From: Planctomycetota bacterium
GTDB taxonomy: Bacteria > Planctomycetota > Phycisphaerae > Phycisphaerales > UBA1924
Reading direction: 5' to 3'
DNA: 64,000 nt
Assembly: GCA_039186605.1 (NCBI GenBank)
Contig: JBCCZZ010000001.1
Span: forward strand, 155,252 to 219,251
The notes beneath the pieces were generated by a model. That model was not told the DNA's origin and did not search any database. It saw only the letters and a program-made list of their open reading frames with translations. Made by a program: the position numbers and the translations under genes. Positions 9,304-34,780 of the stretch are shown here, in pieces; the first letter of the stretch is position 1, and the number at the start of each line of letters is the position of its first letter.

Positions 9304-9371
9304 GGGAACAGCCGAAGTAGCACAGACCGACGGGGCCAACTGACCCGGCGAACGACTGACGGAGGCGTGGT

Positions 9372-13529: not shown

Positions 13530-13621
13530 TCCGTTGTTCAACAAGCCTTTGTGCCATTTCACATATCGGACCATTGGATCGTGACTAGCGCGCAAAGCTA
13601 GCGCGAAACTGGTACTTATCG

Positions 13622-13650
13622 CTTGTCGGGCAGGGAATGGCGGGCTATAC
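13622..13650 (+). promoter_or_regulatory. Candidate sigma70-like promoter (TTGTCG-17 bp-TATACA) upstream of the PEP-CTERM-like cargo gene
   Basis: Hexamers at 13622-13627 and 13645-13650 with a 17-bp spacer, in a locally AT-richer 208-bp intergenic region. An SD-like GGAGGG lies 9 nt before the ATG at 13738. Confidence 0.3.
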
Positions 13651-13737
13651 ATTGATCAGAGTAAAGAGAGAACCCACCCTGCGCCCTTGGCGTATGGGTG
13701 GTCAGCACTTGGGAAAATGCACTTGGAGGGACGTCAA

Positions 13738-14382: not shown

Positions 14383-14412
14383 TCGCGGATACGACACGAT
14401 TCGTCACTCCAA

Positions 14413-14443
14413 GCGGCATCCGCGTAAGCGGATGCCGCTTTTT
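14413..14443. terminator. Rho-independent terminator hairpin (bidirectional position between convergent genes)
   Basis: GCGGCATCCGC-GTAA-GCGGATGCCGC followed by TTTTT, lying between the cargo gene stop (14382) and the rfbB stop (14490). Confidence 0.6.
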
Positions 14444-14489
14444 CGTTCAGCACTTTTGTGTCGACTACCGGGACCGTGGAGTAGGCGGC

Positions 14490-15548: not shown

Positions 15549-15549
15549 C

Positions 15550-17159: not shown

Positions 17160-17242
17160 CTCACAGCCCCAATCCGCCTTTGATCCCGTCCGATCGGCCT
17201 TGTACTCGTCCCGTTATCGGCGGATCCTATCGCTCGGGTGAG

Positions 17243-18076
17243 TCACCTGGTGGTCTCATCACGGAGCCAGGCTTTGCCCTCTCCATCGGCGATGCGACGG
17301 GCCGCCTCCCACCTGGTTTGCAGCTTCGTCCAGAGGTAGACACCGAGGGCGGGCCAGAGCCAGGGGCGGAATCCGAGGAGCAACAGCGCGGTCTTCTGCG
17401 ACCGTTGGCGCCGCTCCATCAGGTCCGGGTACCGCTCGGCCAACTCGCTGAACCCGGACCGGCGGCGGATCTCGATCCGACGCAGGGCCTCGAGCGTCGC
17501 GGGTGGACTCATCCGAAACCTGGATCCTTCGATGACGGCCTGCTCCTTTGGCTCGACGCGCGTGGATGCGAAGGTGTCATCCGCGATCAGATCGGGCCAC
17601 TCATCGAAACGGCCTCGTCCCTCCTCGCTGAACGCGAACACTCCGCCGATCTTGGATCTGTAGTAAGGCAGCCTCGTCCAGATCCGGTAGTACGCGCGGA
17701 CCGACCAGGGACGGTCCTCAAGATCGATATCCATCCTTGGGCTCACCAGATGCAGATCGCCGGTGGGCGCGAGTGCGCTGGCGAGACGCCGGCAGTCATC
17801 GGTCGGCAGATCAACGTCGGCATCGAGGTAGATGCGCGGGAAGGACCTCGCGTGCTGATCGCCCAGATTGAGGGCGTGGATCTTCGACCCAACCTCGGTC
17901 TCGATGACCCGGATCGGGTAATCGATGCCCCGCGCCCGGTCCGCGGTCTCGTCGGTGCAGCCGTTCGCAACGACGATGATGTCGAGTTCACCTGGTGAGG
18001 CATCACGCGTCAGCGCGGTGAGTGTCCGCTCGATAACCGACGCCTCGTTGTGTGCCGGAACTATGACGGTGATCAC
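17243..18076 (-). CDS. Family 2 glycosyltransferase
   Basis: MITVIVPAHNEASVIERTL...DADVDL, a GT-A fold with a DxD motif. Confidence 0.8.
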   Translation of the reverse strand: MITVIVPAHNEASVIERTLTALTRDASPGELDIIVVANGCTDETADRARGIDYPIRVIETEVGSKIHALNLGDQHARSFPRIYLDADVDLPTDDCRRLASALAPTGDLHLVSPRMDIDLEDRPWSVRAYYRIWTRLPYYRSKIGGVFAFSEEGRGRFDEWPDLIADDTFASTRVEPKEQAVIEGSRFRMSPPATLEALRRIEIRRRSGFSELAERYPDLMERRQRSQKTALLLLGFRPWLWPALGVYLWTKLQTRWEAARRIADGEGKAWLRDETTR

Positions 18077-18162
18077 TGGACGCTCGCCTCGGGCTCGATG
18101 GGTGGGCCCGAGCGTAACCCGATACGCGACGGGCGCTCGTTCGGGCCACGGTAGCGCGTGAT

Positions 18163-19134
18163 CTAGCGCCTCGTGGTGCCTACACCCATCGGCGGTTCAT
18201 CGCGAGCGTTCCAGTCCGGATTGTCGTACCGTCGGGCTTCATTGGCCCAGAACCTCAGGTCACGGAAGTCATCCTCATCGCGGAGACTGACAGCCCCGTC
18301 GAGGGTCGCGGCGATCGCTTTCCCACCCCATCGCAGATCGACATATCCGAAGTCGCTGTCTGCAGACTGAGTCCCGAACTCGCTTCGAGAAAAGATGTCG
18401 GTCTGGTACGGGTTTTCCCGGACGGGAGGGTTGATGCGCCAGTAGCCATCGAACGAACCGTGGAAGCCAGCATCCTGGAGCGTCAGATCGAAGGCGTCGG
18501 GATCGACCCGGCTTCGGGCGGACGCGAATACAAGGAGTTCGCCGGGTGCAATGGCCTCGCTGAGACGCCGGACGGGCCCGTACTGGTCAAAGAACGGGTT
18601 TCCGTACTGCGATCTGCTGTATGTGCTGTAGTCGCCCCCGACGTAATAGCCGTTCAGGCCAAACGACGGATAGAGAGACACAAGGTAGTAGAACCACTCG
18701 CCCAACTCGCTCCGGACGTCAAGGAGGCCTGACTGACGGCCGGCAAGGAAGACGCCGTCCACGCTCCGATTGATGTAGGGAACGAGACGCCAGACCCAGC
18801 GTGCAGGCACCTCTCCGGCGGACAGCCCCTCAGACCCGAACGGCTGTCCGAGGTCGTCAACGAGATCCTCGACCTCATCCTTCGTGTAGGCCGGGAGAAA
18901 CGCGTCGTTGTGCTCGATCGCATACGACGTGTACGCGGTGACCAGGTTGCGAACCGCAGCCAGTTCTTTGGTCTTTGCCGCCTGACTCCGAGCGGAGCCC
19001 AGGGCGGGGAGGAGGATACCAATCAGGATTGCGATTATTGCGATCGAGACCAGCAACTCAATCAGTGTGAAAGCACCGGCTCGACCAGGACGAGCGAGGT
19101 AACAAGTCATTCTATCCCTCACGCGATCGATCAT
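18163..19134 (-). CDS. Type IV pilin-like (prepilin N-terminal methylation motif) secreted protein, planctomycete DUF1559-type
   Basis: GAFTLIELLVSIAIIAILIGILLPAL is the class III signal/prepilin cleavage-methylation motif. The true start is probably the MTCY codon at about 19110. Confidence 0.7.
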   Translation of the reverse strand: MIDRVRDRMTCYLARPGRAGAFTLIELLVSIAIIAILIGILLPALGSARSQAAKTKELAAVRNLVTAYTSYAIEHNDAFLPAYTKDEVEDLVDDLGQPFGSEGLSAGEVPARWVWRLVPYINRSVDGVFLAGRQSGLLDVRSELGEWFYYLVSLYPSFGLNGYYVGGDYSTYSRSQYGNPFFDQYGPVRRLSEAIAPGELLVFASARSRVDPDAFDLTLQDAGFHGSFDGYWRINPPVRENPYQTDIFSRSEFGTQSADSDFGYVDLRWGGKAIAATLDGAVSLRDEDDFRDLRFWANEARRYDNPDWNARDEPPMGVGTTRR

Positions 19135-20412: not shown

Positions 20413-23001
20413 TCATGCACCCGAATCGAGGCGGATCGAGGCATTGATCACGGCGAGGTGGCTGTAGGCCTGGGGGTGGTTCCCAAGGGCCACCGACTGG
20501 GCCGGGTCGTACTGCTCGGGGAGCAGCCCGGTGGGCCCGGCCAGAGCGCAGAGGTCGGTCAGCAGGGCTCTAGCTGCAGCAACCCGGCCGATCAGTACCA
20601 GCGACTCGATCAGCCAGCCCGTGCAGATCAGGAACCCGCCCTCGCGGCCGGCGAGCCCGTCGTCGTAGCGGTAGCGCCACACGGCGGGGCCCTCGCGGAG
20701 TTGCTCATCCACCAGTTCCACGGTCTTAACGAACCGCTCATCCATGGGATCGAGCATGCCGGTCAGCCCGACGAGCAGGGCCGAGGCATCGGGGTCGGGA
20801 TAGCCGTACGCGGTCGTGAACGCGCCGGTGTCGGGATCGACGCCGTTGCGGAGCAGATCGGACTTGATCTCCTCGGCGAGCGCGGCCCATTCGGGCTTGT
20901 CGCGGCCTGTGAAGCGTCGGGCGATCCGAGCACCGCGGTCTGCAGCGAGCCAGCACATGGCGCGGGAGTGGACGTGGTGGCGTCTCGCGAGGCGTATCTC
21001 CCAGATGCCGTGGTCCGGCTCATGCCAGCGTTTTTCGACGGCGGAGAGCAGAGACTCGGTCAGCCGCATGTGCTCGGCGCTGATGGGGGCGCCGCGTTCG
21101 CCGAGCTCGTCGATGAGCTCGATGATCGGGCCGATGACATCGAGTTGGATTTGTGCACTCGCGGCGTTGCCAACACGGACCGGACGGCTGCCCGCGTAGC
21201 CGGCCAGTTCGGTGATCTCTGCCTCGGGAGGTAGATCGCCGCCCGTGACGCTGTAAATCGGCCGGATGCGGTCTGGGCTCGGCAGTTCATCGACGATGTT
21301 GAGGCACCAATCGAGGAAACGCATCGCCTCCTGTGTTGAGCCGAGGCGCACGAGCGCCAGGGCACTCATCGATGCGTCGCGGGGCCAGCAGAAGCGGTAG
21401 TCCCAGTTTCGAACGCCCCCCAGGGTCTCGGGGAGGCTCGTCGTAGCGGCGGCGGAGAACGCGCCGGTCGGACCGTACGCGAGAGCGCGGAGGGTGAGGG
21501 CGCTACGCCGGACGAGGTCGGTGTGCAGGCCCGGCAACTCGAGCTTGTCAGCCCACTTCGTCCAGCCGTGGGCGGTCTCGCTCCGCCTTGCCGCCTCGTC
21601 ACGGGAATCGGGACGGAGGTTGCCGGTGCCGCACCGGAGTTCGAGCATGAGCGGCTCACCGGCCTTCAGGGTGATCTCGGCTGTGGCCGTCACGTGCTGG
21701 CCCTCGCGGTGGAGTTCCCAGTTGACACCAGGCGCACGGAGGACGATGGGGTCCACGGTGTCAGAGACGCTGAGCCCCTCATCGGTTACATCGAATGCGG
21801 TCGCGGTTCGGCCGAAGTCCAGACGCGGAGCAAACTCGATCCGGACGGGGCCCTTGCCTTCAAGCACACGGATCAGGTCGGTGCGGCCGGCACGCTGTGT
21901 GGCTCGCCCGCCCGAGGTGTCGAGATAGTCGGTCACCGAGAGATCAGGCCAGGACGTTCGCAGGACCAGCGAGTTGCTGTCGTAGGCCTGTTTGGGTTCC
22001 CCGCCCGAGAGGGGATGGACTGTGAAGTGCCCGGCGGCGTCGCCGCCCAGCAGGTCGGCGAAGAGGGCGGGCGAGTCGATCCGGGGTGCGCACATCCACG
22101 TCACCCGAGCCTTAGGCGTCACAAGCGCAACGGTCCGACCATCGCTCAGGAGTGCGTGTTCCTCGATGGGAACTGCACCCTCGCCTCGGAGCCAGGCCGC
22201 GCGGTGGTCACTGAGCTTGGCCAGGATGCGGCTGACGTCCTGGGTGTCATCCACACGGAATGTCGCGAGGGTCTCGCCAACGCCGACTTTGACCGAGACG
22301 TCTGGCCCACTCATCGCGGCAAACGCGTCCTCGTCGGTGCGGTCGTCACCGAGGAAGACCGCGGCGCTCGCGCCGAAGCGCTGACGGAGTGTCGCGAGGG
22401 CCCGGCCCTTGTCGGTGGGCACGACGGCAAGCTCGATGACCTTCTTCCCACGGCGGACGTGCACACCCGGGAGGCATGCGGGCCCCGCGTTGACACGGCT
22501 TACCGCGGCGTCGGCCTCGGCTTCGGCTGCGTTGCGGTAGTGGAACGCGGTGCTCGCGGGCTTGGTCTCGATCGCGAGGCCTTGGGCCGAGCTGGCGATA
22601 TCGCCCAGCTGCTCTGTCACCCGCTCGAGCAGCCGGCGCTGGGCAGGGGTGAGCGAGTCGGCGAAGCCCACGTCGAACTCGCTGCCGTGGCTGCCGACCA
22701 GATGGACACCTGCCGGGGAGCCGGTGAGGTCGGCGAGGTCGGCCAGCGAGCGGCCCGAGATGATTGCGGCCTCGGTCTTGTGGATCTCGGCGAGTGTGCG
22801 CACGGCGATGACTGCCTCGCGGTGGGGCCTGGCGTCCGCGGGGTTCTCGACGATGGGCGCGAGGGTTCCGTCGTAGTCGGTTGCGACAAGCAGTACTGGC
22901 GAACGAGCGACACGGGCGATGGCCTCGTCGAGGGTCTCGGCGGGGCGGTGCTCTGCGGGCCGTTGTTCTGAGGCGTTGTGTCGGTCGGTCATGGTTGGCA
23001 C
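20413..23001 (-). CDS. otsB: Bifunctional trehalose-6-phosphate phosphatase (HAD) / glycoside hydrolase family 15
   Basis: N-terminus has ATDYDGTLAP and FLGDDRTDEDAF HAD motifs. The C-terminal ~600 aa form a GH15 (glucoamylase/trehalase-like) alpha-alpha toroid region. Confidence 0.8.
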   Translation of the reverse strand: MPTMTDRHNASEQRPAEHRPAETLDEAIARVARSPVLLVATDYDGTLAPIVENPADARPHREAVIAVRTLAEIHKTEAAIISGRSLADLADLTGSPAGVHLVGSHGSEFDVGFADSLTPAQRRLLERVTEQLGDIASSAQGLAIETKPASTAFHYRNAAEAEADAAVSRVNAGPACLPGVHVRRGKKVIELAVVPTDKGRALATLRQRFGASAAVFLGDDRTDEDAFAAMSGPDVSVKVGVGETLATFRVDDTQDVSRILAKLSDHRAAWLRGEGAVPIEEHALLSDGRTVALVTPKARVTWMCAPRIDSPALFADLLGGDAAGHFTVHPLSGGEPKQAYDSNSLVLRTSWPDLSVTDYLDTSGGRATQRAGRTDLIRVLEGKGPVRIEFAPRLDFGRTATAFDVTDEGLSVSDTVDPIVLRAPGVNWELHREGQHVTATAEITLKAGEPLMLELRCGTGNLRPDSRDEAARRSETAHGWTKWADKLELPGLHTDLVRRSALTLRALAYGPTGAFSAAATTSLPETLGGVRNWDYRFCWPRDASMSALALVRLGSTQEAMRFLDWCLNIVDELPSPDRIRPIYSVTGGDLPPEAEITELAGYAGSRPVRVGNAASAQIQLDVIGPIIELIDELGERGAPISAEHMRLTESLLSAVEKRWHEPDHGIWEIRLARRHHVHSRAMCWLAADRGARIARRFTGRDKPEWAALAEEIKSDLLRNGVDPDTGAFTTAYGYPDPDASALLVGLTGMLDPMDERFVKTVELVDEQLREGPAVWRYRYDDGLAGREGGFLICTGWLIESLVLIGRVAAARALLTDLCALAGPTGLLPEQYDPAQSVALGNHPQAYSHLAVINASIRLDSGA

Positions 23002-23006
23002 GGGGA

Positions 23007-24413
23007 TCAGGCGAGCATCGGCTGGCCGGCGAGGTCACTCAAGAAGGCATCAGCCCAGCGGAACACGTCGTGCCGGGTCACGATCTTGCGGAGCGTAGCC
23101 ATGCGTTTTCGGGCCTCGTTGCTGGTCATGTCGAGAGCCTCGGTCAGGGCGCCCGCCATGCCGTCAACGTCATGAGGATTGACCAGGATTGCGCCGCGGA
23201 GCTCGGCGGCGGCACCGGCGAACTCGCTGAGCACGAGTACGCCGTCGGATTCGAGCCTGCACGCGCAGTACTCCTTGCACACCAGGTTCATGCCGTCGCG
23301 GAGAGGCGTGACCATCAGAATGTCAGCGGCGAGGTAGAAGCTGATCAGTTCTCGGATGGGCAGGCCCCTGTACAGGTAGTGGACCGCGACCCAGCCGGGG
23401 CTGGCGTGCTGGCCGTTGATGCGACCAACGATCTGCTCGATGTTGGCCCGCTCGGTGGCGTACTCCTCGACGCCGGCGCGGCTGGGAACGGCGACCTGAA
23501 CAAAGACCACGTCGTCGGATGTCGCCTTGCCCGAGGAGAGGATCTCCTCGAAGGCCCTCAGGCGGATGTCGATGCCCTTGGTGTAGTCGAGGCGATCGAC
23601 ACCAAGGATGATCTTTCGATCACCAAGAACTGTTCGGAGTTCGTCGGCCTTTGCGATGACCTCCGGTTCCCGAGCCATCTTGTCGAAAAATGGCGTGTCC
23701 ACGCTTATCGGGAAGCATCGTGCGCGGCAGACGTGCTCATCGACCTGGAGGTCGCGATCGCGGCCCTTGGCGTCGGCGAGCATGCGCGCAGCGCGTGCGA
23801 AGTTCTGGGCACCGGAAGCTGTTTGGAACCCGACCAGGTCGGCGCCGAGCAGTCCGCGGAGGATCTCGCGACGCCATGGCATCTGTGCGAAGAGCTCTTC
23901 GGGCGGGAAGGGGATGTGCAGGAAGAACCCGATGCGGCAATCGGGGCGGAGTTTCCGGATCATCTCGGGCACCAGTTGGAGCTGGTAGTCGTGGACCCAG
24001 ATGGTGTCGCCCGGCTTGGCCTGGCTGGCCGCGGCCTTCGCGAAGCGCTTATTGATCTCGACATATGGGCGCCACCAGTGACGGTGGAACTCGGGCGGCC
24101 TGACGCAGTCGTGGTAGAGGGGCCAGAGGGTCCGATTACTGAAGCCCTCGTAGAAGGCCTCGAACTCAACCTCATCGAGGGGTACCGGGCGGTTGCGGAT
24201 GCCGTCGAGCTTAAAGGGGCGCGGGGCGGGCCCGGTCTCGCCCGCCCAGCCGACCCAGGTGCCCTCGCGTTCCTGGAGGATGGGTTTAAGGGCGCTCACG
24301 AGGCCCCCGGGACTGACCTTCCAGCCTTGGCCGTCTTTGCCACCCGTGTCCACCCGTCGAACGGGCAGGCGGTTGGCGACAACGATCAGTCTTCCTGCGG
24401 GATCCGCTGGCAT
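23007..24413 (-). CDS. otsA: Alpha,alpha-trehalose-phosphate synthase (UDP-forming)
   Basis: [10 protein letters not shown]...[11 protein letters not shown]...[10 protein letters not shown]20 family. Start taken at the internal ATG (MPADPAG); the long ORF extension upstream is not conserved. Confidence 0.9.
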
Positions 24414-24703
24414 GAACTGAACGTACCAGAAACCACGACCCGCTCGTGGCACCTGTGCTTCGGGACAGCGGGCGGTGGCCTGCGTATCCTCCTGACCCGG
24501 GGGGAAAGAGCCCTTCCGGCACCCCATGGAGGGGACGGCGGGGCTAGAGCCGTGAGCAGCGGCGCATGCCCGGCAGACACCAGTCAGGACCCATGCCTGT
24601 TTCGGGCACCCGTGGACGATCCTCGGGCCCCGTGAAGCCGGCCCTCGGGGCGGGCGGCTGGGACGACGTACACCGAGCACCGCACGCGAAAGGCGAGCAA
24701 CCC

Positions 24704-25015
24704 ATGAGCGACAACCCCGAGCAGCGTCAGGTCCAGCTCCGCATCGACGAGAGCAAGATGCAGACGACCTATGCCAACACGATCCGAACCTCGACAACTC
24801 AGGACGAGGTCATCATGGACTACGGCGTGAACATCCCGGTGCAGGGCCAGGACGGGCAGCCGGCGATGAACTTCGGGATCACCAGCCGCGTGATCATGAA
24901 CTGGTCGGGCGCGAAGCGTCTGGCGATTAATCTGGGTCAAGTCATCCGCGCCTATGAGGAGCGGAACGGCGAGATCGAACTCCAGCGTCCGCAGCAGCCA
25001 GGGGCCGAGGGCTGA
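24704..25015 (+). CDS. DUF3467-like small protein (103 aa)
   Basis: MSDNPEQRQVQLRIDESKMQTTYANTIR...FGITSRVIMNWSGAKRLAINLGQVIRAYEE matches the conserved pattern of the ~100-aa DUF3467 family. It is the first gene of the operon described in findings. Confidence 0.55.
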   Translation: MSDNPEQRQVQLRIDESKMQTTYANTIRTSTTQDEVIMDYGVNIPVQGQDGQPAMNFGITSRVIMNWSGAKRLAINLGQVIRAYEERNGEIELQRPQQPGAEG

Positions 25016-25056
25016 GCGAGCGCCGCTCCGAGCGGGGCCTGGGGCCCCACTGAGAC

Positions 25057-26943
25057 ATGAGTACAACCGGGACCGAACGCGAACAAGCTGCGCTCGGGCG
25101 CACGAGCCCGAACGCGGAGGGTGCCGCGCGGCTCCGTGCGTTCCTGGGTGAGCTGCTGGAGTTCCAGTGCTCGCTGGTTGGCGCAACGGGCGGTGTGGTT
25201 GTTCTACGCGAGACCAAGGTGCGCCAAGGGGGGGTGATCGCCGAGCGGGCCTGGCCCGGGGGCGGACCGCTTGATCCATCGGTCCGCGCCCGGCTTGAGC
25301 GTGCGGGTGCGGATTCGCTTCGCACGCCTGCGAGATCGAGCGTCGCGGGTCAGTTGCGGGATTTGGGTGGCAGCGGGATCTACGGCGAGGGCGAGGCGAG
25401 GCCGATGGTCGTCGTTGGGCTCTTCGCCGCCGGCATGCGTGAGGGCTCGGCGGTGCTGCTGTTACCGCCCGGGACAGACGAGCGTGACGCCCTAGACAAG
25501 CTTGAGCTGACTGCGGACCGGTTCGAGAGCTATCTGTGGTCTCAGCGTGCGATCGCCGAAGCCGAGCAGAAGACGGTGCTTCGCGAAACGCTTGAACTGC
25601 TGGACACGATGCAGCAAGGGCGAGACGCACGCGCAATGGCGTCGCTCCTGGCTCACGAGATCGCGCGGCGGTTCGGCTGCGTGCGCGTGAGCGTCGGGCT
25701 TGTCGGCAGGGATCGGATCAGGCTCTCAGCGGTGAGCGGCTCGGACGACCCTGACCCAAAGGGTGAGGCAGCCGAAGCGCTGGAAGCCGCGATGGAGGAG
25801 GTTGCTCAACAAGACGCGGAGGTGATCTACCCGGAGCCTCCAGAGGCCGAGCATGACCCGATGCTGCGGCGCGTGACTCGTGCGGCCGAAGCGCTGAGCA
25901 AACGGTTTGGGCCTACGGCGGTCATGGGACTTCCTCTGCGTGTGGAGGGCGACCTGGTCGGGGTCGCGATCCTGGAGCGGGATCCAGAAGAGCCTTTCCC
26001 GTCGGGCGCGGCTTCGCTGACAAGGCTTGTCGCGGAGTATGCGGGACCGGCGCTCTGGACGAGGCGTCTGGCGGACCGCGGGCTGATCCGGGTGGTGTAC
26101 GACTGGTGCATGGATATCGCGTCGATCCTGGTCGGGCCCAGGTACACGGCGACGAAGCTGGTGTGTGCGTTGCTGCTGGGGATTGCGGTTGCATCCGCGC
26201 TCGTGCCGATCCCCGGGCGTGTGACGGCGGAAACCCGTGTCAGAGCGGGGATGTCGCGCACGGTGGTTCCAGCGATCACGGGGTACCTGAACGGGGTCTT
26301 CGTTGAGCCCGGCGATCGGGTTGAGGTGGGCGATGAGCTGGCCCGGATCGATACCTCCGACATGGAGTTGGACCGCGCCGAAATCCTCGGTGAGTTGGCT
26401 CGGCTTCGAAGCGAGCGGGACGGCGCGGCTGCTCGGCGCAGGAACGCCGAAGTCAGGCAGCTCGAAGCGCAGATTGAGCAGCAGGACGCCAGGCTTATGC
26501 TGCTCGACCTGCGCATTAGCCGTGCCACACTGACCGCGCCGATCGACGGGGTGGTCGGCCGGGGCCGGCTGGACGAGTTGGTCGGCGCACAGGTCGATCC
26601 GAGCCGGCCGCTCTTCGAACTGGTGGATGAGGAACGGGTGCTGGTGCTTCAGGTGCCCGAGTCCGTCGTAACAAAGGTCGAGGTGGGCCAGACGGGCCGG
26701 TTTGTCTCGAAGGCAATCCCGGGCGAGAGCGTCGACGTGCGTGTCGTCTCGATTAGCCCTGTTGCCGAGCCGATCGAGGGTGGGAACGTGTACGGCGTCG
26801 AGGCCGAGATTGTTGGTGAGGTGCCGGCCTGGCTCCGCCCAGGCATGTCGGGCAAGACCAAGCTCGACAAGGGGCAGACCACGGTGATGCGTTTGCTGGC
26901 GGACCCGCTGATCGATCGGGCGAGGCTGTACCTTTGGTGGTAA
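25057..26943 (+). CDS. HlyD-family membrane-fusion/adaptor protein with cytoplasmic tandem GAF-like N-terminal domains
   Basis: Two GAF-like modules (~370 aa), one TM helix (LVCALLLGIAVASALVPI), then a biotinyl-lipoyl-like hairpin (GYLNGVFVEPGDRVEVGDELARID), coiled coil and beta-barrel, as in HlyD/MFP proteins. Confidence 0.7.
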   Translation: MSTTGTEREQAALGRTSPNAEGAARLRAFLGELLEFQCSLVGATGGVVVLRETKVRQGGVIAERAWPGGGPLDPSVRARLERAGADSLRTPARSSVAGQLRDLGGSGIYGEGEARPMVVVGLFAAGMREGSAVLLLPPGTDERDALDKLELTADRFESYLWSQRAIAEAEQKTVLRETLELLDTMQQGRDARAMASLLAHEIARRFGCVRVSVGLVGRDRIRLSAVSGSDDPDPKGEAAEALEAAMEEVAQQDAEVIYPEPPEAEHDPMLRRVTRAAEALSKRFGPTAVMGLPLRVEGDLVGVAILERDPEEPFPSGAASLTRLVAEYAGPALWTRRLADRGLIRVVYDWCMDIASILVGPRYTATKLVCALLLGIAVASALVPIPGRVTAETRVRAGMSRTVVPAITGYLNGVFVEPGDRVEVGDELARIDTSDMELDRAEILGELARLRSERDGAAARRRNAEVRQLEAQIEQQDARLMLLDLRISRATLTAPIDGVVGRGRLDELVGAQVDPSRPLFELVDEERVLVLQVPESVVTKVEVGQTGRFVSKAIPGESVDVRVVSISPVAEPIEGGNVYGVEAEIVGEVPAWLRPGMSGKTKLDKGQTTVMRLLADPLIDRARLYLWW

Positions 26944-26953
26944 GGGGCGCGCG

Positions 26954-29185
26954 GTGCGGCTTTTCGAGGTAGACACCGGCGGGACCTATTCCGACGAGTG
27001 GTACAGGGTCAGCCAGCTCCAGCCCAGGCTGAACCCGATCGCACACGTCGTGCGTCAGAGCAGCGGGGACACGGTGTGGTACATCATCGAGGACCCGGCA
27101 GGGAGCCGCTACTTCCGGGCGGGTGAGGGGGCGTACTTCTTCGCCGCGCTCCTCGATGGCAGGCGGACGGTGGATGACGCGTGGGAGGCGTGCTGCGCGC
27201 AACTTGGGGACGCGGCGCCGACACAGCGTTCGTGCCTCGACATCCTGATGAAGCTCCAGTCTTTCGGGCTGCTGCTTGGCGATGATGTAGCAGCGGCGGA
27301 TCTCGTGGGCGAGCGGATCAGGCGGGGGCGGAAGAGCCGCCGCGAGAAGCGAACAGGGCGCTGGTTTTTCCTCAGCGTGCCGCTGGTCAACCCGGAACGG
27401 CCGCTGGCAGCGACGAACTGGCTCTGGAAAGCGGCATGGGGACCCCTCGGGCTGATCCTCTTTCTCGCGTCCGTTGTGGCGGGCGGGTACAGCGTTTGGA
27501 CCAACGCCGATCAGCTCGCGGATCCGATCAATGAGTTGATGACACCCACGCGGCTCATGCTGGTGGGGCTGATCTTCATTGTTCTTCGTGCGGTTCATGA
27601 GCTCGGGCATGCGACGGCTTGTAAGGCGTACGGCGGCCGTTGCACAGAGATTGGGCTTTTCCTGGTGGCGCTCATTCTCCCGCTTCCCTACTGCGATGCA
27701 TCGAGTTCGTGGCGCTTCCCGGAGCGTTGGAAGCGGATCATGGTCGCGTTGGGCGGCGTGATGGTTGAGCTGTTCATTGCCGGGATTGCGGCGGTGATTT
27801 GGGCGAACACATCCGCAACGGATGCGCCCGCTCTAAAGAACGTGTGCTACCACGTGATGCTGGTGTCGGGTGTCGCGACGTTCCTGTTCAACCTCAATCC
27901 GCTGCTTCGATACGACGGGTACTACATCCTGAGCGATCTCATCGCTGCGCCAAATCTGGCGCAGCGCAGCAAGGAGATCTGGCGCTACCTGACGGAGCGG
28001 ATCGCGTTCGGGGTCAAGAGGAGCAGGCCTCCGACACTGCGATCCAGGAGCGAGGCAATCTGGCTTTTCTTCTACGCACTCGCATCCACGCCCTACCGAT
28101 TGTTCATCGCGGTGTCGATCATCCTTCTGGTCTCGTCGAAGTACCTGACAGTTGGTGTTGTGATCGCGGTCGCGACCGCGACGATCATGTTGATCTGGCC
28201 ATCACTCAAGGGCGCGTGGTACCTGCTGAGTTCGCCCACACTTATCGGGCGGCGTGTTCGAGCGTTCGCTGTGGTTGCGGTCGTGCTCGGTGCGTTGATC
28301 GGTGGGCTCGGGTTCGTCCCCGCACCGGCGGCGGAGATCTCGCCGGCAACGATCGAGGCCCGGTGGACCGATCCCATCCGGGCACCGCTCGACGGGTTCG
28401 TTGAGAGCTTCCTTGTTTCTCCCGGAGACGAGGTCGAGGCGGGCCAGCCGCTGATTCTGCTGCGCAACGATCCGCTTGATATCCAGATCACCGAGCTCGA
28501 GTCGATCAGAAGGCTGACTGAGGCGCAGCTCGCGCAGGCCGAGACGGAATCTCCGGCGCTCGCGGTGCTCGCGAGGCAGAAACTCGATCTGATCAACGAG
28601 CGCCTGGCGGACGCGGTCGGGAGACGGGACTCGCTGACCGTTCGTGCGACACGTGCCGGACGGTACGTCGCGCCCGGCGCGATCGCGGGTGGGCTCGACC
28701 GGCTGACGGGTGTGTTTGTGTCGCGCGGGGAACCTCTGGGCAGTGTGGCGAGCCGAGACTCGTTGGTCGTGCGGGCGTATGTCTCTGATCGAGAGCACGC
28801 GTACGTATTCAGGAATGACGACCTGGGTGCGGTACCCGCGTCGGTTCGGCTGTGGGGCCGGGCGGGGCTGGAACTGCCCGCGGTGGTGACCGCGACTGAG
28901 CCTGTTGCGTCGCGCGGCGCAGACTTGGCGGTGACCACGCTCGCTGGAGGAGAGGTAGAGATCACCCAGGACGCCGAGGGGAACCAGATCGCCATGGTGC
29001 CCCAGTTCCGTGTGGATCTCCAGCCATCTGATGACGGGCGGTGGGCCGAAGCGGGCGAGATCCGCGCTGGTTTGCGTGCCCGCGTGCGTTTCGCGGCTCC
29101 TGATGAACCGCTCGGCGCGCAGTGGTTCAGGCGTGCGAGCCGCTATTTCGAGGAGCGGTTCGCGGGCGGCGGGGGTGCCCTGTGA
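26954..29185 (+). CDS. Site-2 protease (peptidase M50) fused to N-terminal PqqD/RRE-like domain and C-terminal HlyD-like periplasmic domain
   Basis: N-terminal ~110 aa (P..P....R..G..W...DP...RYFR..EGAYFFAALLDGRRTVDDAWE...DILMKLQSFGLLL) is PqqD-like. HELGH lies in a TM helix, and FNLNPLLRYDGYYILSD is the second S2P motif. The C-terminus has VESFLVSPGDEVEAGQPLILL plus coiled coil, i.e. HlyD-like. Confidence 0.75.
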   Translation: MRLFEVDTGGTYSDEWYRVSQLQPRLNPIAHVVRQSSGDTVWYIIEDPAGSRYFRAGEGAYFFAALLDGRRTVDDAWEACCAQLGDAAPTQRSCLDILMKLQSFGLLLGDDVAAADLVGERIRRGRKSRREKRTGRWFFLSVPLVNPERPLAATNWLWKAAWGPLGLILFLASVVAGGYSVWTNADQLADPINELMTPTRLMLVGLIFIVLRAVHELGHATACKAYGGRCTEIGLFLVALILPLPYCDASSSWRFPERWKRIMVALGGVMVELFIAGIAAVIWANTSATDAPALKNVCYHVMLVSGVATFLFNLNPLLRYDGYYILSDLIAAPNLAQRSKEIWRYLTERIAFGVKRSRPPTLRSRSEAIWLFFYALASTPYRLFIAVSIILLVSSKYLTVGVVIAVATATIMLIWPSLKGAWYLLSSPTLIGRRVRAFAVVAVVLGALIGGLGFVPAPAAEISPATIEARWTDPIRAPLDGFVESFLVSPGDEVEAGQPLILLRNDPLDIQITELESIRRLTEAQLAQAETESPALAVLARQKLDLINERLADAVGRRDSLTVRATRAGRYVAPGAIAGGLDRLTGVFVSRGEPLGSVASRDSLVVRAYVSDREHAYVFRNDDLGAVPASVRLWGRAGLELPAVVTATEPVASRGADLAVTTLAGGEVEITQDAEGNQIAMVPQFRVDLQPSDDGRWAEAGEIRAGLRARVRFAAPDEPLGAQWFRRASRYFEERFAGGGGAL

Positions 29186-31221
29186 GCGGTGTGGTCGGCG
29201 GGGGCACGATCGGCCGGTCGGGGCGGCTCTGGGCAGACCTCGCGAAGCCACAGGAACGAACGCTCGCGCTTCGAGGCGCGGACGTGTTTGGCTCGACAGT
29301 CGTTGGAATCGGTGCCCGGTTCAGGCGTGCAAGAACCGAGCGAGGTCGGGCAAAGTCCATACTCACCGAGGCCCGAACGCTCAGCGATCACTCGTCCGCG
29401 GCGTTCGCTGAACGGGTGAGTGAGGCGCAGTCGTTGGTGCTCTTGGATCGCTCGAGCAGAGCCGCGGTTGACGCTGCGTACGCCTGTGCGGTCGAGGCGG
29501 TGCGCCGCACGCTCGGGTTCGAACTGCACACGGTGCAGGTGATGGCCGCGCTCGCGATGGCGAAAGGCTGCTGCTGCGAGCTGGCGACCGGCGAGGGAAA
29601 GACGGCGGCCGCGATCTTGCCTGCGGCGCTAGACGGCATGGTCGGTCGCGGCGTTCACGTGATCACGGTGAATGACTACCTCGCGGGGCGCGATGCGGAA
29701 ATCACTGGTCCTGCGTATCGGTTGCTGGGCTTGCGTGTCGGCTTCGTGACGGAGACTTCGTCGACGGAGGCGCGTCGAGAGGCGTATTCGGCAGATATCA
29801 CCTACGCGGCGGAGAAGCAGCTGATCTTCGACTACCTGAGGGATCGCCTCCTGACCCCCGTGAACCCCCGGATGGCCTCGGCGTTGCTTGACGAGGTGGC
29901 GGGATACGACCGACGTGTACGCGGCGCGGAGACCGAGCGGGGCGACGCCAAATGGGCACAAACGGTAACCCAGCGCGGGCTGCACGCGGCGGTGATCGAC
30001 GAGGCGGACAGCGTGCTGATCGACCAGGCCGGGACGCCGGCGATCATCGGGCGTGACGCGCCGGAGGAACTCGGTGAGGCGGCAGCCGAGCGGTACCGGA
30101 CGTCCGACGCCATCGCGGCCTCGTTGACCCGGGGGGTTCATTACAAGCTGGATGAAGGGCAACGCTTTGTTGCGCTCACCGACGCGGGACGACACGTGCT
30201 TGACGAGCGTTCTGTGGAACTCCCCCCGTTCTGGTCGGGACCGAGGCGTCGAGAAGAACTTGTGAAGCTCTCACTCATGGCTCGGGAGACGTTCGAGCGG
30301 GACGACGACTATGTCGTCCGCGACGGTGCGGTCGAGCTTGTTGACCGACAGACGGGGCGGGTGCTGACGGGTCGGCAGTGGCAGCAGGGGTTGCACCAGG
30401 CGGTCGAGGCGAAAGAGGGCGTCACGATCACCGCGGGTCGGCAGACCATGAGCCGGATCGGTTATGCCGCGTTCTTTGCTCGCTACCGGCGGCTATGCGG
30501 CATGAGCGGTACTTGCTGGGAAACACGGCACGAGCTGTGGCGCATGTATCGGTTGCCGGTTGCGCGTGTGCCAACCCATAAACGCGTGCGGCGGAGGCAC
30601 GCGGGTGATCGCGTGTTCACGAGCGAGACTCAGAAGTTCGAGGCGGTCGCGAACCGAACTGCGAAGCTCAGCGGTGTGGGACGGCCCGTGCTCATTGGGA
30701 CGCGGAGTGTTGCAGCAAGCGAGCGGCTTGGCAAGCTGCTTGACGAACGAGGCGTCGGATGCAAGATCCTGAACGCCTACCGCGAGGCTGAAGAAGCGGA
30801 GATCATCGCTGCCGCCGGCGAAGAACACGCGGTCACGGTCGCGACGAACATGGCTGGCCGCGGCACGGATATCAAACTGACGAAGAAAGCCAAGAAGCTG
30901 GGCGGACTGGTGGTTGTTGCCACAGAGCGGCACAACGAGCGACGCGTTGATCGCCAGCTCTTCGGCCGTGCGGGACGGCAGGGCGATCCTGGGCGTGCAG
31001 AGATGTTCGTCTCGCTCGACGATGAACTGGTGCGCGGCGCGATGCCCACGACCGGCCGTCTGGCGCTCAGGCTAACGCCTCCGCCTTTCCGCTCGCTGCT
31101 CGGGCGCCTGCTGTTGCCGGTGAGCCAGCGGATCGCGAGCGGCCGCGCAGCGGTGCATCGGCTCGAAAGCTGGAAGCATGACTCGTCGAAGGATCTTGCG
31201 CTGCGAGGTCACACGCGTTAG
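29182..31221 (+). CDS. SecA-like motor ATPase (NBD1 + PPXD-like + NBD2 only; no helical scaffold/wing/C-tail)
   Basis: GEGKTAAAILPA (Walker A), VHVITVNDYLAGRDAE, VIDEADSVLIDQAGTPAIIG, ATNMAGRGTDIKL and ERHNERRVDRQLFGRAGRQGDPG all match SecA DEAD-motor signatures. The protein ends ~70 aa after NBD2. GTG start overlaps the upstream stop (GTGA). Confidence 0.75.
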   Translation: MSGVVGGGTIGRSGRLWADLAKPQERTLALRGADVFGSTVVGIGARFRRARTERGRAKSILTEARTLSDHSSAAFAERVSEAQSLVLLDRSSRAAVDAAYACAVEAVRRTLGFELHTVQVMAALAMAKGCCCELATGEGKTAAAILPAALDGMVGRGVHVITVNDYLAGRDAEITGPAYRLLGLRVGFVTETSSTEARREAYSADITYAAEKQLIFDYLRDRLLTPVNPRMASALLDEVAGYDRRVRGAETERGDAKWAQTVTQRGLHAAVIDEADSVLIDQAGTPAIIGRDAPEELGEAAAERYRTSDAIAASLTRGVHYKLDEGQRFVALTDAGRHVLDERSVELPPFWSGPRRREELVKLSLMARETFERDDDYVVRDGAVELVDRQTGRVLTGRQWQQGLHQAVEAKEGVTITAGRQTMSRIGYAAFFARYRRLCGMSGTCWETRHELWRMYRLPVARVPTHKRVRRRHAGDRVFTSETQKFEAVANRTAKLSGVGRPVLIGTRSVAASERLGKLLDERGVGCKILNAYREAEEAEIIAAAGEEHAVTVATNMAGRGTDIKLTKKAKKLGGLVVVATERHNERRVDRQLFGRAGRQGDPGRAEMFVSLDDELVRGAMPTTGRLALRLTPPPFRSLLGRLLLPVSQRIASGRAAVHRLESWKHDSSKDLALRGHTR

Positions 31222-32783
31222 GGCGTTCGTTGGCTCGGCTGTGGATCGCGGTCGATCATTGAGTCGAGCATGGTGCCGATGAGGGCGGTCGTGGCGCTAT
31301 CGCTCTCATCCGCACCACCACCGTTGACCATTACACGCGGTGCGATGTTGATCCCGCGTTCGCCGATCACCTGCAGCACTTCGATGAGCGCGGCGTTTCC
31401 GGGGCCGATCTCGCGGGCGATGGCCTGGAATGCCGCAGCCTGGGCCTCGGCGCGGACGCGGATCGCCTCGGCTTCGGCCTCTGCGGCGATGATGCGCTTG
31501 CGCTTGTCTTCCTCAGCGATCTGCACCTCGTAGCGCGCTGTGGCGAGGCGCCGCTCTTCCTCGGCCTCCTGCTCGGTTCTGGTCAGCTGCTTGCGTTGTT
31601 CTGCGGCTCGTTGCTGCTCCTGGAACGTGATCTGCTCCTGGAGCGCGATCTCCCGATCGGTCTGGGTCTGCAGCAGCTCTCCCAGCGTTTCGCGATCTCC
31701 GACATCACCGATCGCGACGCCGGTGACGGTCACACCAAGCGGCGCAAGCCTCATCTGGAGCATGCTCAGCGATTGGGCTTCCTGGCTTGAACGCTGCTGC
31801 ACATAGTCAAGAGCCTTGACACCCTCGGCGTTGTTCCGAAAGACGGAGCGGACTGCGGAGATCAGGCGGTCTTGGAGCAGTTCTCCATCATCGCGGAAGG
31901 TCGCGACGACCAAGGGGGCATCGATCGGTTTGATCTCGTACTCGACACGCACATCAACGGGGAATGTGAACCCATCGCTTGAGCGGACTGTGATCTCGCT
32001 CTCGGCTTCCGTACGTTGCGCCTTGGTGAACTCGAGTACGCGTTTGGCGGTGCTGATCACGGTGACCTCGAGCGCTTTGCTGTTCAGGTAGTACTCCTTA
32101 GGCTCGAGTGGTTGGCGACGGATGCCGCGCTCGTCGGGGCCGACAAGCCCGTCGTCCGAGATGGCTGGAGGCGTGGCGCCAACGTTGGACTTCACGACAC
32201 CAACGGTGGCCCGCTCGATGTTGGTCAGACGGACGAGTTCGACATCGAAGAGCTTGGGGTTGATCCTGTAGGACCCGGGCCTGAGCACGCTGGTCTGTGG
32301 GCCCTTGTACCCCCCGCCATCACCCAAGAAGTAACCGGCATCCTGCGCCATGCGCTTCGTGTCACTCTCGGCCCACTCCGGCGCGTAGATTGAATCGGCG
32401 GGGAGTGGAAGCCCGTCACGTGCGGTTACGAGCCCGACCGAGCCCGTCTCAACGCGAACGATTGGGTGGAACTCGACATCGAAGATGAAGGGCCACAGGA
32501 ACGGGTGCCAGCCGGGTGGGAGGATGTCCGCCTGCGGTCCTTTCTCGCCTTCTGTCGCGATGATCTTCCCGGGTGGGAGCCCCTTGCCGCCGACGTTCTT
32601 GATCACAACGCCGATGCGGTCCTCGGGAACGAAGCGGAAGCTCCCGAGCACGAAGAACACGCCGAGCACGATGATCGCAGCCGTGGCGATCGATGCCCTC
32701 AGCGCTGAGGACTTCACCTTTGGGATGAGTGCGAGGATGCCGCCAGCAATGACGAGCCCGAACACGAGCAGGATCGCGGTCAT
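31218..32783 (-). CDS. SPFH/Band 7 (flotillin-like) membrane protein
   Basis: N-terminal TM hairpin, SPFH core, and a long Ala/Glu-rich coiled-coil C-terminus (EAEAEAIRVRAEAQAAAFQAIA). Confidence 0.8.
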   Translation of the reverse strand: MTAILLVFGLVIAGGILALIPKVKSSALRASIATAAIIVLGVFFVLGSFRFVPEDRIGVVIKNVGGKGLPPGKIIATEGEKGPQADILPPGWHPFLWPFIFDVEFHPIVRVETGSVGLVTARDGLPLPADSIYAPEWAESDTKRMAQDAGYFLGDGGGYKGPQTSVLRPGSYRINPKLFDVELVRLTNIERATVGVVKSNVGATPPAISDDGLVGPDERGIRRQPLEPKEYYLNSKALEVTVISTAKRVLEFTKAQRTEAESEITVRSSDGFTFPVDVRVEYEIKPIDAPLVVATFRDDGELLQDRLISAVRSVFRNNAEGVKALDYVQQRSSQEAQSLSMLQMRLAPLGVTVTGVAIGDVGDRETLGELLQTQTDREIALQEQITFQEQQRAAEQRKQLTRTEQEAEEERRLATARYEVQIAEEDKRKRIIAAEAEAEAIRVRAEAQAAAFQAIAREIGPGNAALIEVLQVIGERGINIAPRVMVNGGGADESDSATTALIGTMLDSMIDRDPQPSQRTP

Positions 32784-32830: not shown

Positions 32831-33634
32831 TTACACGTCGAGATCAACGGAGACAGGTGCGTGATCTGAGATCGCTAGGCCCGCTTCGCGGTCGATAGAG
32901 ACCGATTTGACGAGTTTGGCCGCTGCCTTGTTCGCGAGCAGATAGTCGATGCGCCAGCCGCGATCCAGTTCGCGGGCGTTGCCGCGATTCGACCACCACG
33001 TGTAGGGCCCGTCGCGGTCGCCGGCGTCAAGGCGGATAAGGTCGGCCCAGCCCTGGGCGAGTAGCTCTCCGAACCACGCTCGTTCGTGAGGGAGGAAGCC
33101 GCTCGTTTTCTGGTTCGATCGCCAATGGAAGATATCGCGCTCGGTGTGGGCGATGTTGAAGTCGCCGCCGAGAACTGTGGGCACGCGAGAACGAGCAAGC
33201 GCTTCTGCCCAGGGAAAGAACGACTTCATCCAGCGTTCCTTCTCGGCTTGGCGGTGGTCGCCCGATGTGCCACTGGGGAGGTAAACGCTGGCCGCGCGGA
33301 CAGGTCCGACTTTGGCCATCACCAAGCGTCCCTCGGGGTCGGGCTCACCGATGCCGGTCTTGGGCGCGGCGTGCTTCTCACGACTCCAGAGCGCGGTGCC
33401 CGAGTAGCCCTTCTTCTCCGCCGGATGCCAGCGGGCGTGATAGCCCTCTGGGTTCGCCCACTCGTCGTCGAGTTGCTCGGGCAGCGCTCGGACCTCCTGG
33501 AGGAGCAAGACGTCCGGGTCGAGCGAGCGGAGGCGGAGGTCGAGGCCTTTCCGGATCGCGGCGCGGATGCCGTTGAGGTTCCAGGTCGTGATACGCACGG
33601 AGGGAACGGTAGCATGGCTCAGCCAAAGGAGCAT
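32831..33634 (-). CDS. xth: Exodeoxyribonuclease III
   Basis: VRITTWNLNGIRA...LLLQE...GDFNIAH...DHAPVSVDL, EEP-family AP endonuclease. Start is ATG at 33634 or GTG at 33598. Confidence 0.8.
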   Translation of the reverse strand: MLLWLSHATVPSVRITTWNLNGIRAAIRKGLDLRLRSLDPDVLLLQEVRALPEQLDDEWANPEGYHARWHPAEKKGYSGTALWSREKHAAPKTGIGEPDPEGRLVMAKVGPVRAASVYLPSGTSGDHRQAEKERWMKSFFPWAEALARSRVPTVLGGDFNIAHTERDIFHWRSNQKTSGFLPHERAWFGELLAQGWADLIRLDAGDRDGPYTWWSNRGNARELDRGWRIDYLLANKAAAKLVKSVSIDREAGLAISDHAPVSVDLDV

Positions 33635-34780
33635 GCGATGGGCTACGACGCGACGCTGATCGGCGGGAACCCCGGTGACCACATGGGTCTGTACCACGCG
33701 GTACGGTTCGGTTGCCACGACGCTGGGGCCTACCTCCGGTTCGAACAGACTGGCGAGACCGTGTTCATCGTGCGCGACATCGAGCTGCTCCGCGCTCGCG
33801 AGCAGGCGAGGGCCGACAGGGTCTACGCACCGGCCGAACTCGCACCGGCGGGAGGGCTGAGCAAGGACCGCGACACCGGGGTCGCCCAGGCGGTGGCCGA
33901 GTGCCTCAGGCGAGGCGGCGCCTCGCGGGTACGCGTTGATCGTGCGACACCCATGCTCTTCGCCCACGTGCTCATGGGATCAGGCTTCGAGGTGGTCTGC
34001 GATCCGGATCTTGGCGCCGCCGAGCGACGTGCGAAGGATGAGCAGGAAGTCGCGTGGCTGACCGAGGCACAGGCCGCGACCGAGGAAGTGATGCGTCTTG
34101 CGTGCGAGACCATTGCGCGAGCCAGCCCTGGGCCAGACGGATCGCTCTCGCTCGACGGGGCAGCGCTGACGAGTGAACGTGTTCGGGCGATGATCGATGT
34201 CAGGCTCCTCGAGCTTGGGTACTCGAACGGTGATTGTGTTGTGGCAGGCGGTGTGCATGGGGCTGACCCGCACGAGCGCGGCTCCGGTGTGCTGCGCACC
34301 GCTGAGGCGGTGGTCATCGACATCTTCCCGAGGAACAAGCGGACGCTCTACAACGGCGATTGCACGCGCTGCGTAGTCAACGGGGAAGTGCCCGATGCAA
34401 TCACACGGATGCATGCGGCGGTTGTCGAGGCGAAGGCGGCGGGGATCGCCCGGGCATCGGCGGGGACACCGGCGGGCGACCTGCACGCCGATGTTGTCTC
34501 GGTGATCGAGAAGCACGGTTTCGCTTTCAGGAGGCCCGGGATCGAGGGCACTGGTGCTGCGATGCTCCACGGCACCGGGCACGGCATCGGGCTGGATGTA
34601 CATGAGCCGCCGCTGCTGGATGAGGGCCAGGGTCCGCTGATCGCGGGAGACGCCGTGACAATCGAGCCCGGCCTCTACGACCCGGCGATCGGTGGGATCC
34701 GTATCGAGGACATGGTCATCGTTACGGAAGACGGCGCAATGAATCTCAACAGCCTGCCAGAGGGGCTCGGTTGGGCCTGA
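33614..34780 (+). CDS. M24-family Xaa-Pro aminopeptidase/dipeptidase
   Basis: Creatinase-like N-terminus. C-terminus has the HGTGHGIGLDVHEPP and metal-ligand pattern of the M24B family. An SD-like GGAGGG precedes the ATG at 33614. Confidence 0.75.
   Translation: MAQPKEHAMGYDATLIGGNPGDHMGLYHAVRFGCHDAGAYLRFEQTGETVFIVRDIELLRAREQARADRVYAPAELAPAGGLSKDRDTGVAQAVAECLRRGGASRVRVDRATPMLFAHVLMGSGFEVVCDPDLGAAERRAKDEQEVAWLTEAQAATEEVMRLACETIARASPGPDGSLSLDGAALTSERVRAMIDVRLLELGYSNGDCVVAGGVHGADPHERGSGVLRTAEAVVIDIFPRNKRTLYNGDCTRCVVNGEVPDAITRMHAAVVEAKAAGIARASAGTPAGDLHADVVSVIEKHGFAFRRPGIEGTGAAMLHGTGHGIGLDVHEPPLLDEGQGPLIAGDAVTIEPGLYDPAIGGIRIEDMVIVTEDGAMNLNSLPEGLGWA

Follow-up and report, generated by a model that had tools for sequence, protein, structure and literature searches.

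A four-gene SecA-like/M50/GAF-HlyD locus in a Planctomycetota bacterium: a minimal member of a conserved module with a possible role in the export of giant surface proteins

Background

A conserved gene neighborhood centered on "secondary SecA_DEAD domain proteins", SecA relatives without the wing and scaffold domains, was described by Kamneva, Poudel & Ward in 2015 (PLoS One 10:e0129066, PMC4452313). In several phyla, these proteins are encoded together with Peptidase_M50/HlyD, HlyD/Biotin_lipoyl and GAF/HlyD proteins and sometimes with an outer-membrane protein of the OEP family, and a type-I-like secretion was proposed, in which the SecA-like protein would be the ATPase and the M50 protein might form the membrane pore. 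Here we analyze a locus of four genes, g1-g4, at positions 24704-31221 of a 64-kb stretch of contig JBCCZZ010000001.1 from a Planctomycetota bacterium; this whole stretch is referred to as the window, and all positions are counted within it. As judged from its genes, the locus is a minimal member of this known, functionally uncharacterized module. The genes are:

24704-25015, + strand: g1, 103 aa, DUF3467 protein, predicted to be small and cytosolic with a beta-beta-beta-alpha fold
25057-26943, + strand: g2, 628 aa, GAF-HlyD adaptor
26954-29185, + strand: g3, 743 aa, fusion of a PqqD-like RRE (recognition element of RiPPs, peptides made by ribosomes and modified post-translationally), an M50 site-2 protease (S2P) and HlyD
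29182-31221, + strand: g4, 679 aa with the GTG at 29182 as start codon, motor-only SecA paralogue

All four open reading frames (ORFs) have a high third-position GC content. The first two spacers are of 41 bp (g1/g2) and 10 bp (g2/g3), and the g3/g4 junction is a GTGA overlap of the start codon (29182-29184) with the TGA stop (29183-29185), with a G-rich stretch just 5' of this GTG and an alternative GTG start of g4 at 29122. The co-directional arrangement and the domain content proposed in a first-pass annotation of the window, made from the sequence alone, were confirmed from the ORFs and agree with the hidden Markov model (HMM) searches, whereas its assertion that no system of this composition had been described is refuted by the 2015 report of this kind of system. 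The described members include META1p2399-2402 of M. extorquens and PSMK_16490/16500 of Phycisphaera mikurensis, and the supplementary table lists a SapC cluster and a "conserved hypothetical" (NOG277429) beside the GAF gene (PMC4452313); by our reading, this hypothetical is probably DUF3467. The locus shares with these the SecA_DEAD protein without SecA_SW, the M50+HlyD and GAF+HlyD fusions, their clustering, the phyla and the cross-phylum synteny, and differs by having no separate HlyD/Biotin_lipoyl protein, SapC or OEP. That paper gives no function for the locus, and it and its supplements mention neither PqqD/RRE, nor DUF3467 by name, nor RTX/hemolysin or giant neighbors, nor LEPR-XLL, an N-terminal signature of giant proteins. 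The link to LEPR-XLL, the homology of g3 with RRE-S2P proteins and the place of DUF3467 as a component would be new, as we found none of them stated in the literature that could be searched.

Classical type I secretion (HlyB-HlyD-TolC, and the Lap-type exporters of giant adhesins) has in common with the locus the HlyD-type periplasmic adaptors, found here in g2 and g3, and with its relatives a TolC-like OEP, SapC, and giant Ca-binding proteins with RTX, cadherin or Big repeats. In contrast, no ABC transporter belongs to the module, either in the flanks of our locus or among the families conserved across the loci compared below. Its ATPase is SecA-derived and soluble, its membrane part is an S2P-like protease-HlyD fusion, it has up to three different adaptors, and its candidate signal is N-terminal (LEPR-XLL, in relatives), whereas the type I signal is C-terminal and uncleaved. 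The Achromobacter ArtA locus was considered as an instance of the module and rejected, since it is a classical HlyB/HlyD/TolC system.

For the membrane protein, the closest characterized relative is the daptide protease MpaP, an RRE-dependent intramembrane leader peptidase of the S2P type (PMC10028931), which gives a precedent for the leader-peptide recognition and cleavage that the first-pass annotation had suggested for an RRE-S2P protein. MpaP (NF041824) and YydH/LiaK (NF058609) resemble g3 in the N-terminal PqqD-like region, a putative RRE in g3, and the HExxH M50 core. The differences are the score of g3 below the equivalog level, its extra C-terminal HlyD periplasmic domain of ~290 aa, the lack of nearby precursor peptides and modifying enzymes, and the SecA-like and GAF-HlyD partners.

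The motor protein g4 has the NBD1 and NBD2 nucleotide-binding domains, the preprotein cross-linking domain (PPXD) and all ATPase motifs of SecA/SecA2, and differs from these by lacking the helical scaffold, the two-helix finger, the wing and the C-terminal linker, and by having no link to SecY2 or Asp genes. Giant proteins of Omnitrophota and Actinobacteria embed SecA_DEAD+PP_bind, for which a role in self-export of the giant protein was proposed (bioRxiv 10.1101/2023.11.21.568195). There too, a SecA motor without scaffold and wing is tied to giant proteins, but as a domain of the giant, whereas g4 is a separate protein beside M50/HlyD. In Chlorobium chlorochromatii, the giants Cag_663 and Cag_665 have an N-terminal LEPRxLL and are flanked by SapC and TolC, and a horizontally acquired secA, Cag_1676, belongs to the co-expression cluster of Cag_663 and Cag_665; the M50/GAF module is not mentioned in that work (bioRxiv 10.64898/2026.03.19.712371). 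We infer that Cag_1676 is a motor-only SecA paralogue; Chlorobi are among the phyla listed in PMC4452313.

Results and discussion

Conservation of the module across bacteria

The locus was compared with a collection of 82 loci, 80 of which come from a scan of one genome per species and two were known to us earlier; their ORFs were clustered into families, and OEP, SapC and the small HlyD proteins were assigned by Pfam. The 80 scanned loci span at least eight phyla, the taxa being Planctomycetota, Verrucomicrobiota, four proteobacterial classes, Nitrospirota, Rokubacteria, Acidobacteriota, Lentisphaeria and Myxococcales. The families occur as follows:

g3 (M50-HlyD): 81/82 loci, the anchor
g2 (GAF-HlyD): 79/82 loci, directly 5' of g3
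g4 (SecA-like): 68/82 loci, directly 3' of g3
third small HlyD (~240-290 aa): 66/82 loci, at either end of the module
DUF3467: 36/82 loci, directly 5' of the GAF gene, in many phyla
OEP/TolC: 11/82 loci, adjacent
SapC: 9/82 loci, adjacent

The recurrence of the GAF > M50 > SecA gene order, in 68-79 of the loci, is by this comparison far beyond chance. Co-occurrence of the genes, which the first-pass annotation had named as a point to check, is borne out across phyla. The absence of an outer-membrane factor, from which, together with that of an ABC transporter, it had been concluded that the set is not a classical type I system, is peculiar to the window, as is the absence of further adaptors: relatives have a third HlyD in most cases and an OEP in some. 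The window is the only locus of the collection that consists of DUF3467 > GAF > M50 > SecA and nothing else.

With a threshold of E <= 1e-30, the g3 family amounts to 3,574 clusters (50% identity); among the top matches listed nearly all homologues are full-length (~715 aa). Given this size and the spread over at least eight phyla, any function of the family would be broadly relevant, with surface adhesion, symbiosis (e.g. the giants of the Chlorochromatium consortium) and predation as possible areas. The g3 protein itself is on record as hypothetical protein AAGB51_00800, with its closest relatives in Phycisphaerales.

A variant arrangement, GAF > M50 > HlyD without any SecA-like gene up to a distance of 10 kb, was observed at L070 (8906-14425), L029 and L044 (loci of the collection are cited by L numbers). 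The third HlyD of L070 carries a SPOR domain and is directly followed by a LEPR-XLL giant.

Giant proteins and the LEPR-XLL signature next to the module

Among the 56 loci with at least 3.3 kb of upstream sequence, 23 show an ORF of 1000 aa or more on the same strand, ending just 5' of the module. These upstream giants are mostly longer than 2,200 aa and extend beyond the fetched DNA. Outside Planctomycetota they are found at 21 of 39 loci, and 16 of these 21 have at least four GGxGxD motifs; the domains recognized in the upstream giants are HemolysinCabind, Laminin_G_3, Big_9, cadherin-like, He_PIG and PKD. Genes of 18,499, 9,406 and 4,468 aa end ~70-240 bp 5' of a DUF3467 gene. The giant genes 5' of DUF3467, whose N-termini lie outside the fetched DNA, are:

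L083:1-9929
L086:1-9929
L085:1-9757

Wherever the N-terminus of a neighboring large ORF is visible, it has a basic stretch followed by [F/L]ExLEPRxLLSAD. Such LEPR-XLL ORFs were detected at 13-14 loci, namely L007, L009, L011 (twice), L015, L024, L043, L051, L052, L069, L070, L072, L079 and L082, with a weak case at L013. They are located either directly 5' of the module or directly 3' of the gene for the SecA-like protein or for the small HlyD (for example, L052 from 14317, L043 from 7527, and L024:2714-7375). Four of five N-termini tested passed the NCBIfam model NF012209 ("LEPR-XLL domain-containing protein") with 26-32 bits at a cutoff of 17. At ~35 of the 82 loci (~40%), the Phycisphaerae loci L052 and L072 among them, the module adjoins a giant gene and/or a LEPR-XLL gene. 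On these grounds LEPR-XLL is a candidate secretion or leader signal for the machinery of the module.

Two groups of giants can be distinguished by their C-termini. The giant RTX group of L020, L030, L060, L063, L065, L071 and L076 has a common C-terminal block (~200 aa), D-AAG-GWF-D...MDLL-V-HE-GH-LG-xH, with a metzincin-like HExxH motif, and the group of L083, L086 and L087 has a different common C-terminal block.

The RRE/site-2 protease/HlyD fusion protein g3

The features of g3 (+ strand) are:

aa 45-107, nt 27086-27274: putative RRE, PqqD match
aa 157 to 455: ~7-8 transmembrane helices between these residues, by hydropathy
aa 215-219, nt 27596-27610: HELGH, the HExxH motif
aa 313-322, nt 27890-27919: NxNPxxxxDG (NLNPLLRYDG), the third zinc-ligand motif
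aa ~474-619, nt 28373-28810: HlyD-type periplasmic domain, by Pfam

The Peptidase_M50 match is above the Pfam cutoff (31.6 bits). Across 46 diverse members of the family, no substitution occurs at H215, E216, N313, N315, P316 or D321, and G218 and H219 reach a conservation of at least 90%. Since both site-2 protease motifs, HExxH and NxxPxxxxDG, are thus conserved, the protease is probably active. In the same 46 proteins M50 is matched in 41 and PqqD in 29, with a best E of 1.8e-8, so the RRE named in the first-pass annotation is supported at the level of the family, the match of g3 alone falling short of the cutoff. Residues 26-413 align with positions 3-365 of 379 of the NCBIfam daptide_HExxH profile NF041824 (158.4 bits, E 2.7e-46; equivalog cutoff 300 bits), and the YydH/LiaK model NF058609 is matched with E 1.7e-8. 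No PDZ domain was found in g3 by Pfam. The C-terminal part matches HlyD_3 (22.9 bits), and for the HlyD parts of both g3 and g2 every membrane fusion protein model of NCBIfam stays below its cutoff, among them RND_mfp (TIGR01730), with 25 bits for g3 and 76 bits for g2.

The motor protein g4

The Pfam matches of g4 (+ strand) are:

nt 29344-30540: SecA_DEAD, 259 bits
nt 30085-30408: SecA_PP_bind, 89 bits
nt ~30586-31041: P-loop_SecA, 175 bits

No match to SecA_SW was obtained with Pfam. The layout is NBD1, PPXD and NBD2 followed by a C-terminal tail of ~58 aa, with no scaffold or wing domain, no C-terminal linker and no transmembrane helix, and the alignment with PDB structures stops near residue 552 of SecA from B. 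subtilis, the end of NBD2. Scores with the NCBIfam SecA and SecA2 models (TIGR00963, TIGR03714, TIGR04221 and others) are 434-526 bits versus cutoffs of 725-1493, one example being 526 bits versus a cutoff of 862. Walker A GEGKT, DEAD, GRGTD and GRxGRQGDPG are kept in at least 66 of the 68 homologues. The ORFs of these homologues have a median length of 673 aa. A frameshifted full-length SecA, a possibility that the first-pass annotation had raised against its own assignment, was rejected because of this homologue length and because the neighboring SPFH gene abuts the g4 stop codon and leaves no room 3' for lost scaffold and wing coding sequence. We conclude that g4 is a truly short, soluble motor and probably active. 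Compared with B. subtilis SecA, it has an insertion of ~35 residues in NBD1 just before DEAD (residues ~225-259, window 29850-29960).

The adaptor g2 and the DUF3467 protein g1

The features of g2 (+ strand) are:

aa ~15-178: weaker GAF-like region (internal hhalign versus GAF, probability 79%, E 1.6e-5)
aa 193-333, nt 25633-26055: GAF domain, by Pfam
aa 368-386, nt 26158-26214: single transmembrane helix, by hydropathy
aa 401-596, nt 26257-26844: HlyD barrel-sandwich/beta-barrel, by Pfam

The matches to GAF (28.5 bits) and GAF_3 (29.6 bits) are both above cutoff, and the HlyD part scores 52 bits with HlyD_D23 and 39.5 bits with HlyD_3. Of the tandem GAF domains initially annotated, one is therefore firm and the other weak. 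Probably the ~365 N-terminal residues are cytoplasmic and the HlyD part is periplasmic.

The g1 protein matches DUF3467 with 59 bits (Pfam). Within Phycisphaerae DUF3467 proteins are 65-90% identical, compared with 41-49% for g3, and this stronger conservation suggests a constrained structural role, not that of a precursor peptide. A confident AlphaFold2 model based on a diverse alignment (pLDDT, the predicted local distance difference test, of 82.8) is composed of three strands, antiparallel to one another, and a long helix at the C-terminus. Among solved structures it has no significant neighbor; weak resemblances are to COMM, PC4 and Pur-alpha, small beta-sheet-plus-helix modules that usually oligomerize. 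No similarity to SecB was found, DUF3467 has no leader-like or LEPR-like N-terminus, and kinship with SapC was rejected (hhalign probability 0.4%). We found essentially no literature on DUF3467. Four of five look-ups anchored on DUF3467 land in the module. With low confidence we consider this protein an accessory adaptor or chaperone.

Tandem pairs of DUF3467 genes were observed 5' of the GAF gene at L057:5450-7212 and L087:9402-10312. Most DUF3467 proteins of Phycisphaerae end in a GPRLSE-like tail (alignment A1); the window protein has no such tail and ends with ...PGAEG.

Proposed function and alternative explanations

We give about even chances to the module being an exporter that spans the envelope and is akin to type I secretion systems, yet devoid of an ABC transporter. 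From the neighbors in other bacteria, its role would probably be that of a dedicated exporter of giant surface proteins. The cargo would be large repeat-rich surface proteins with an N-terminal LEPR-XLL leader. The cytoplasmic RRE of g3 would bind this leader, and the S2P core (HELGH and NPxxxxDG) would cut it off at the membrane. The scaffold and the two-helix finger of SecA serve on SecY; g4, with the preprotein clamp kept and these SecY-docking parts lost, may dock instead on g2 and g3 from the cytoplasmic side and feed the unfolded polypeptide through with its N-terminus leading. The HlyD domains in g2 and in g3, joined in most relatives by the third small HlyD, would form the periplasmic conduit to a TolC-like channel, while the GAF region of g2 may gate or regulate the machine and DUF3467 may act as a small cytosolic accessory, possibly an adaptor or chaperone. 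The window holds the four-gene core only; genes for the cargo, for the third adaptor and for the outer-membrane factor would have to lie at other sites of the genome. A more specific version, to which we assign somewhat less than even odds, is that of a distinct unnamed secretion system for LEPR-XLL giants, with leader removal by the RRE-S2P-HlyD protein, a SecA-derived motor replacing the ABC transporter, N-to-C threading via an HlyD/TolC conduit with two or three adaptors, and DUF3467 or SapC as cargo-handling accessories.

Several observations weigh against this assignment to giant-protein export. In the window there is no LEPR-XLL protein, no cargo gene, no third HlyD and no OEP: the HMMs of the OEP, third HlyD, SapC and RTX families give no further match across the 64 kb, and the third-HlyD model, built from the 66 loci, matches nothing but the HlyD portions of these two proteins, g2 and g3, although a third HlyD may be present elsewhere on the 571-kb contig. 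Only two of the 17 Planctomycetota loci have an upstream giant, LEPR-type neighbors being nevertheless present at L007, L009, L052 and L072. Of the 23 upstream giants, L024 and L072 are the only ones with the N-terminus within the fetched DNA. No SecA-like gene is adjacent in L029, L044, L046, L047 and L070, and at least one DUF3467 copy is located outside the module (L084). The PqqD match of g3 (20.2 bits, E 8e-4) is just under the gathering cutoff of 23.4 bits, and the binding of LEPR-XLL by the RRE is a pure analogy with MpaP. We know of no S2P protease acting as an export pore. In the exponential phase of M. extorquens only the GAF gene is clearly expressed (reanalysis in PMC4452313), and no functional or experimental study of the module was found in the literature searched.

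Other explanations start from the same domains. The homology of g3 with the daptide and YydH/LiaK proteases, the RRE dependence of MpaP and the first position of DUF3467 in the operon would fit a RiPP-like pathway, in which the RRE recognizes the leader of a small precursor (DUF3467 or another small ORF), the S2P cleaves it, and HlyD proteins and the SecA-like motor serve for export. This explanation appears unlikely to us, since ORFs of 18-70 aa within 1 kb of the module form no conserved family (the best one, seen at three loci, is made up of shadow or low-complexity ORFs), RiPP-modifying or tailoring enzymes are not conserved in the 82 loci, g3 reaches only about half of the equivalog cutoff, and DUF3467 is a folded protein of ~100 aa with the conservation described above. 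A small-peptide substrate, as considered in the first-pass annotation, is not supported; the recurrent neighbors are instead the giant LEPR-XLL proteins.

Slightly less credible still is a function in intramembrane-proteolysis signaling or quality control, with the GAF region sensing a ligand, the SecA-like motor unfolding or extracting a membrane or periplasmic protein, the S2P cleaving it and the HlyD parts being a scaffold only. M50/S2P enzymes are classically signaling proteases, as RseP and SpoIVFB are, GAF domains are sensory, and expression of the M. extorquens GAF gene is separate from that of the rest of the module; however, the neighborhoods of the 82 loci have no conserved gene for a sigma factor, an anti-sigma factor or a transcription factor, g3 is devoid of PDZ, the three HlyD-type adaptors together with OEP/TolC and SapC of relatives point to a trans-envelope conduit, and the giant secreted-type neighbors would be left unexplained. 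Finally, the best matches of the HlyD domains are to models of resistance-nodulation-division (RND)/membrane fusion protein type (TIGR01730), which would fit a tripartite pump for small molecules or lipids; the SecA-like protein would then act as an unrelated helicase-like protein or chaperone, and the giant genes would be neighbors by coincidence. We judge such a pump very improbable: no RND, major facilitator superfamily or ABC component is conserved in the 82 loci, the SecA-like protein retains its preprotein-binding domain, the S2P catalytic residues are invariant, and a chance association with giant/LEPR-XLL neighbors at this frequency and across phyla is unlikely.

To our knowledge, little is understood of how bacteria export proteins with 5,000 to >30,000 residues, and we know of no machinery assigned to the LEPR-XLL tag that appears in the NCBI naming of many giants. 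If export of giant proteins is indeed the function, the module would represent a secretion route with a SecA motor redeployed apart from SecYEG and would extend RiPP-style leader recognition by an RRE to protein secretion. The window itself adds one more, incomplete-looking instance of the module first reported in 2015.

Genomic context of the locus

The genes flanking the locus on both sides are unrelated to the module and located on the opposite strand:

OtsA (GT20) domain beginning at ~24419, - strand: otsA, divergent from the operon
24420-24703, no strand: otsA/g1 divergent intergenic region
abutting the g4 stop codon on the 3' side, opposite strand: SPFH/Band-7 gene, convergent with g4
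32831-33967, - strand: Exo_endo_phos gene, two genes downstream of the operon

From its position, the divergent intergenic region is presumed to contain the operon promoter; scans of 24300-31500 for sigma-70-type promoter and terminator consensus sequences found nothing and are uninformative for a Planctomycete. No ABC transporter is encoded within ~10 kb of the operon. In a Tepidisphaera locus an Exo_endo_phos gene (L002:14304-15095) directly follows the SecA-like gene with overlapping stop and start codons, which may be a coincidence.

The G+C content of the window is ~65% and drops from ~0.65 to ~0.60 in its last third (~42000-64000). The otsA gene forms a trehalose gene pair (20413-24419, - strand) with a fused trehalose-phosphatase/TREH_N/GH15 gene (862 aa). 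Further away, positions 5507-18196 make up a polysaccharide-biosynthesis neighborhood with genes for Wzz/AAA_31, a Bac_transf sugar transferase, a 1,389-aa TPR protein, GDP-mannose dehydratase, a nucleotidyl transferase and GT2.

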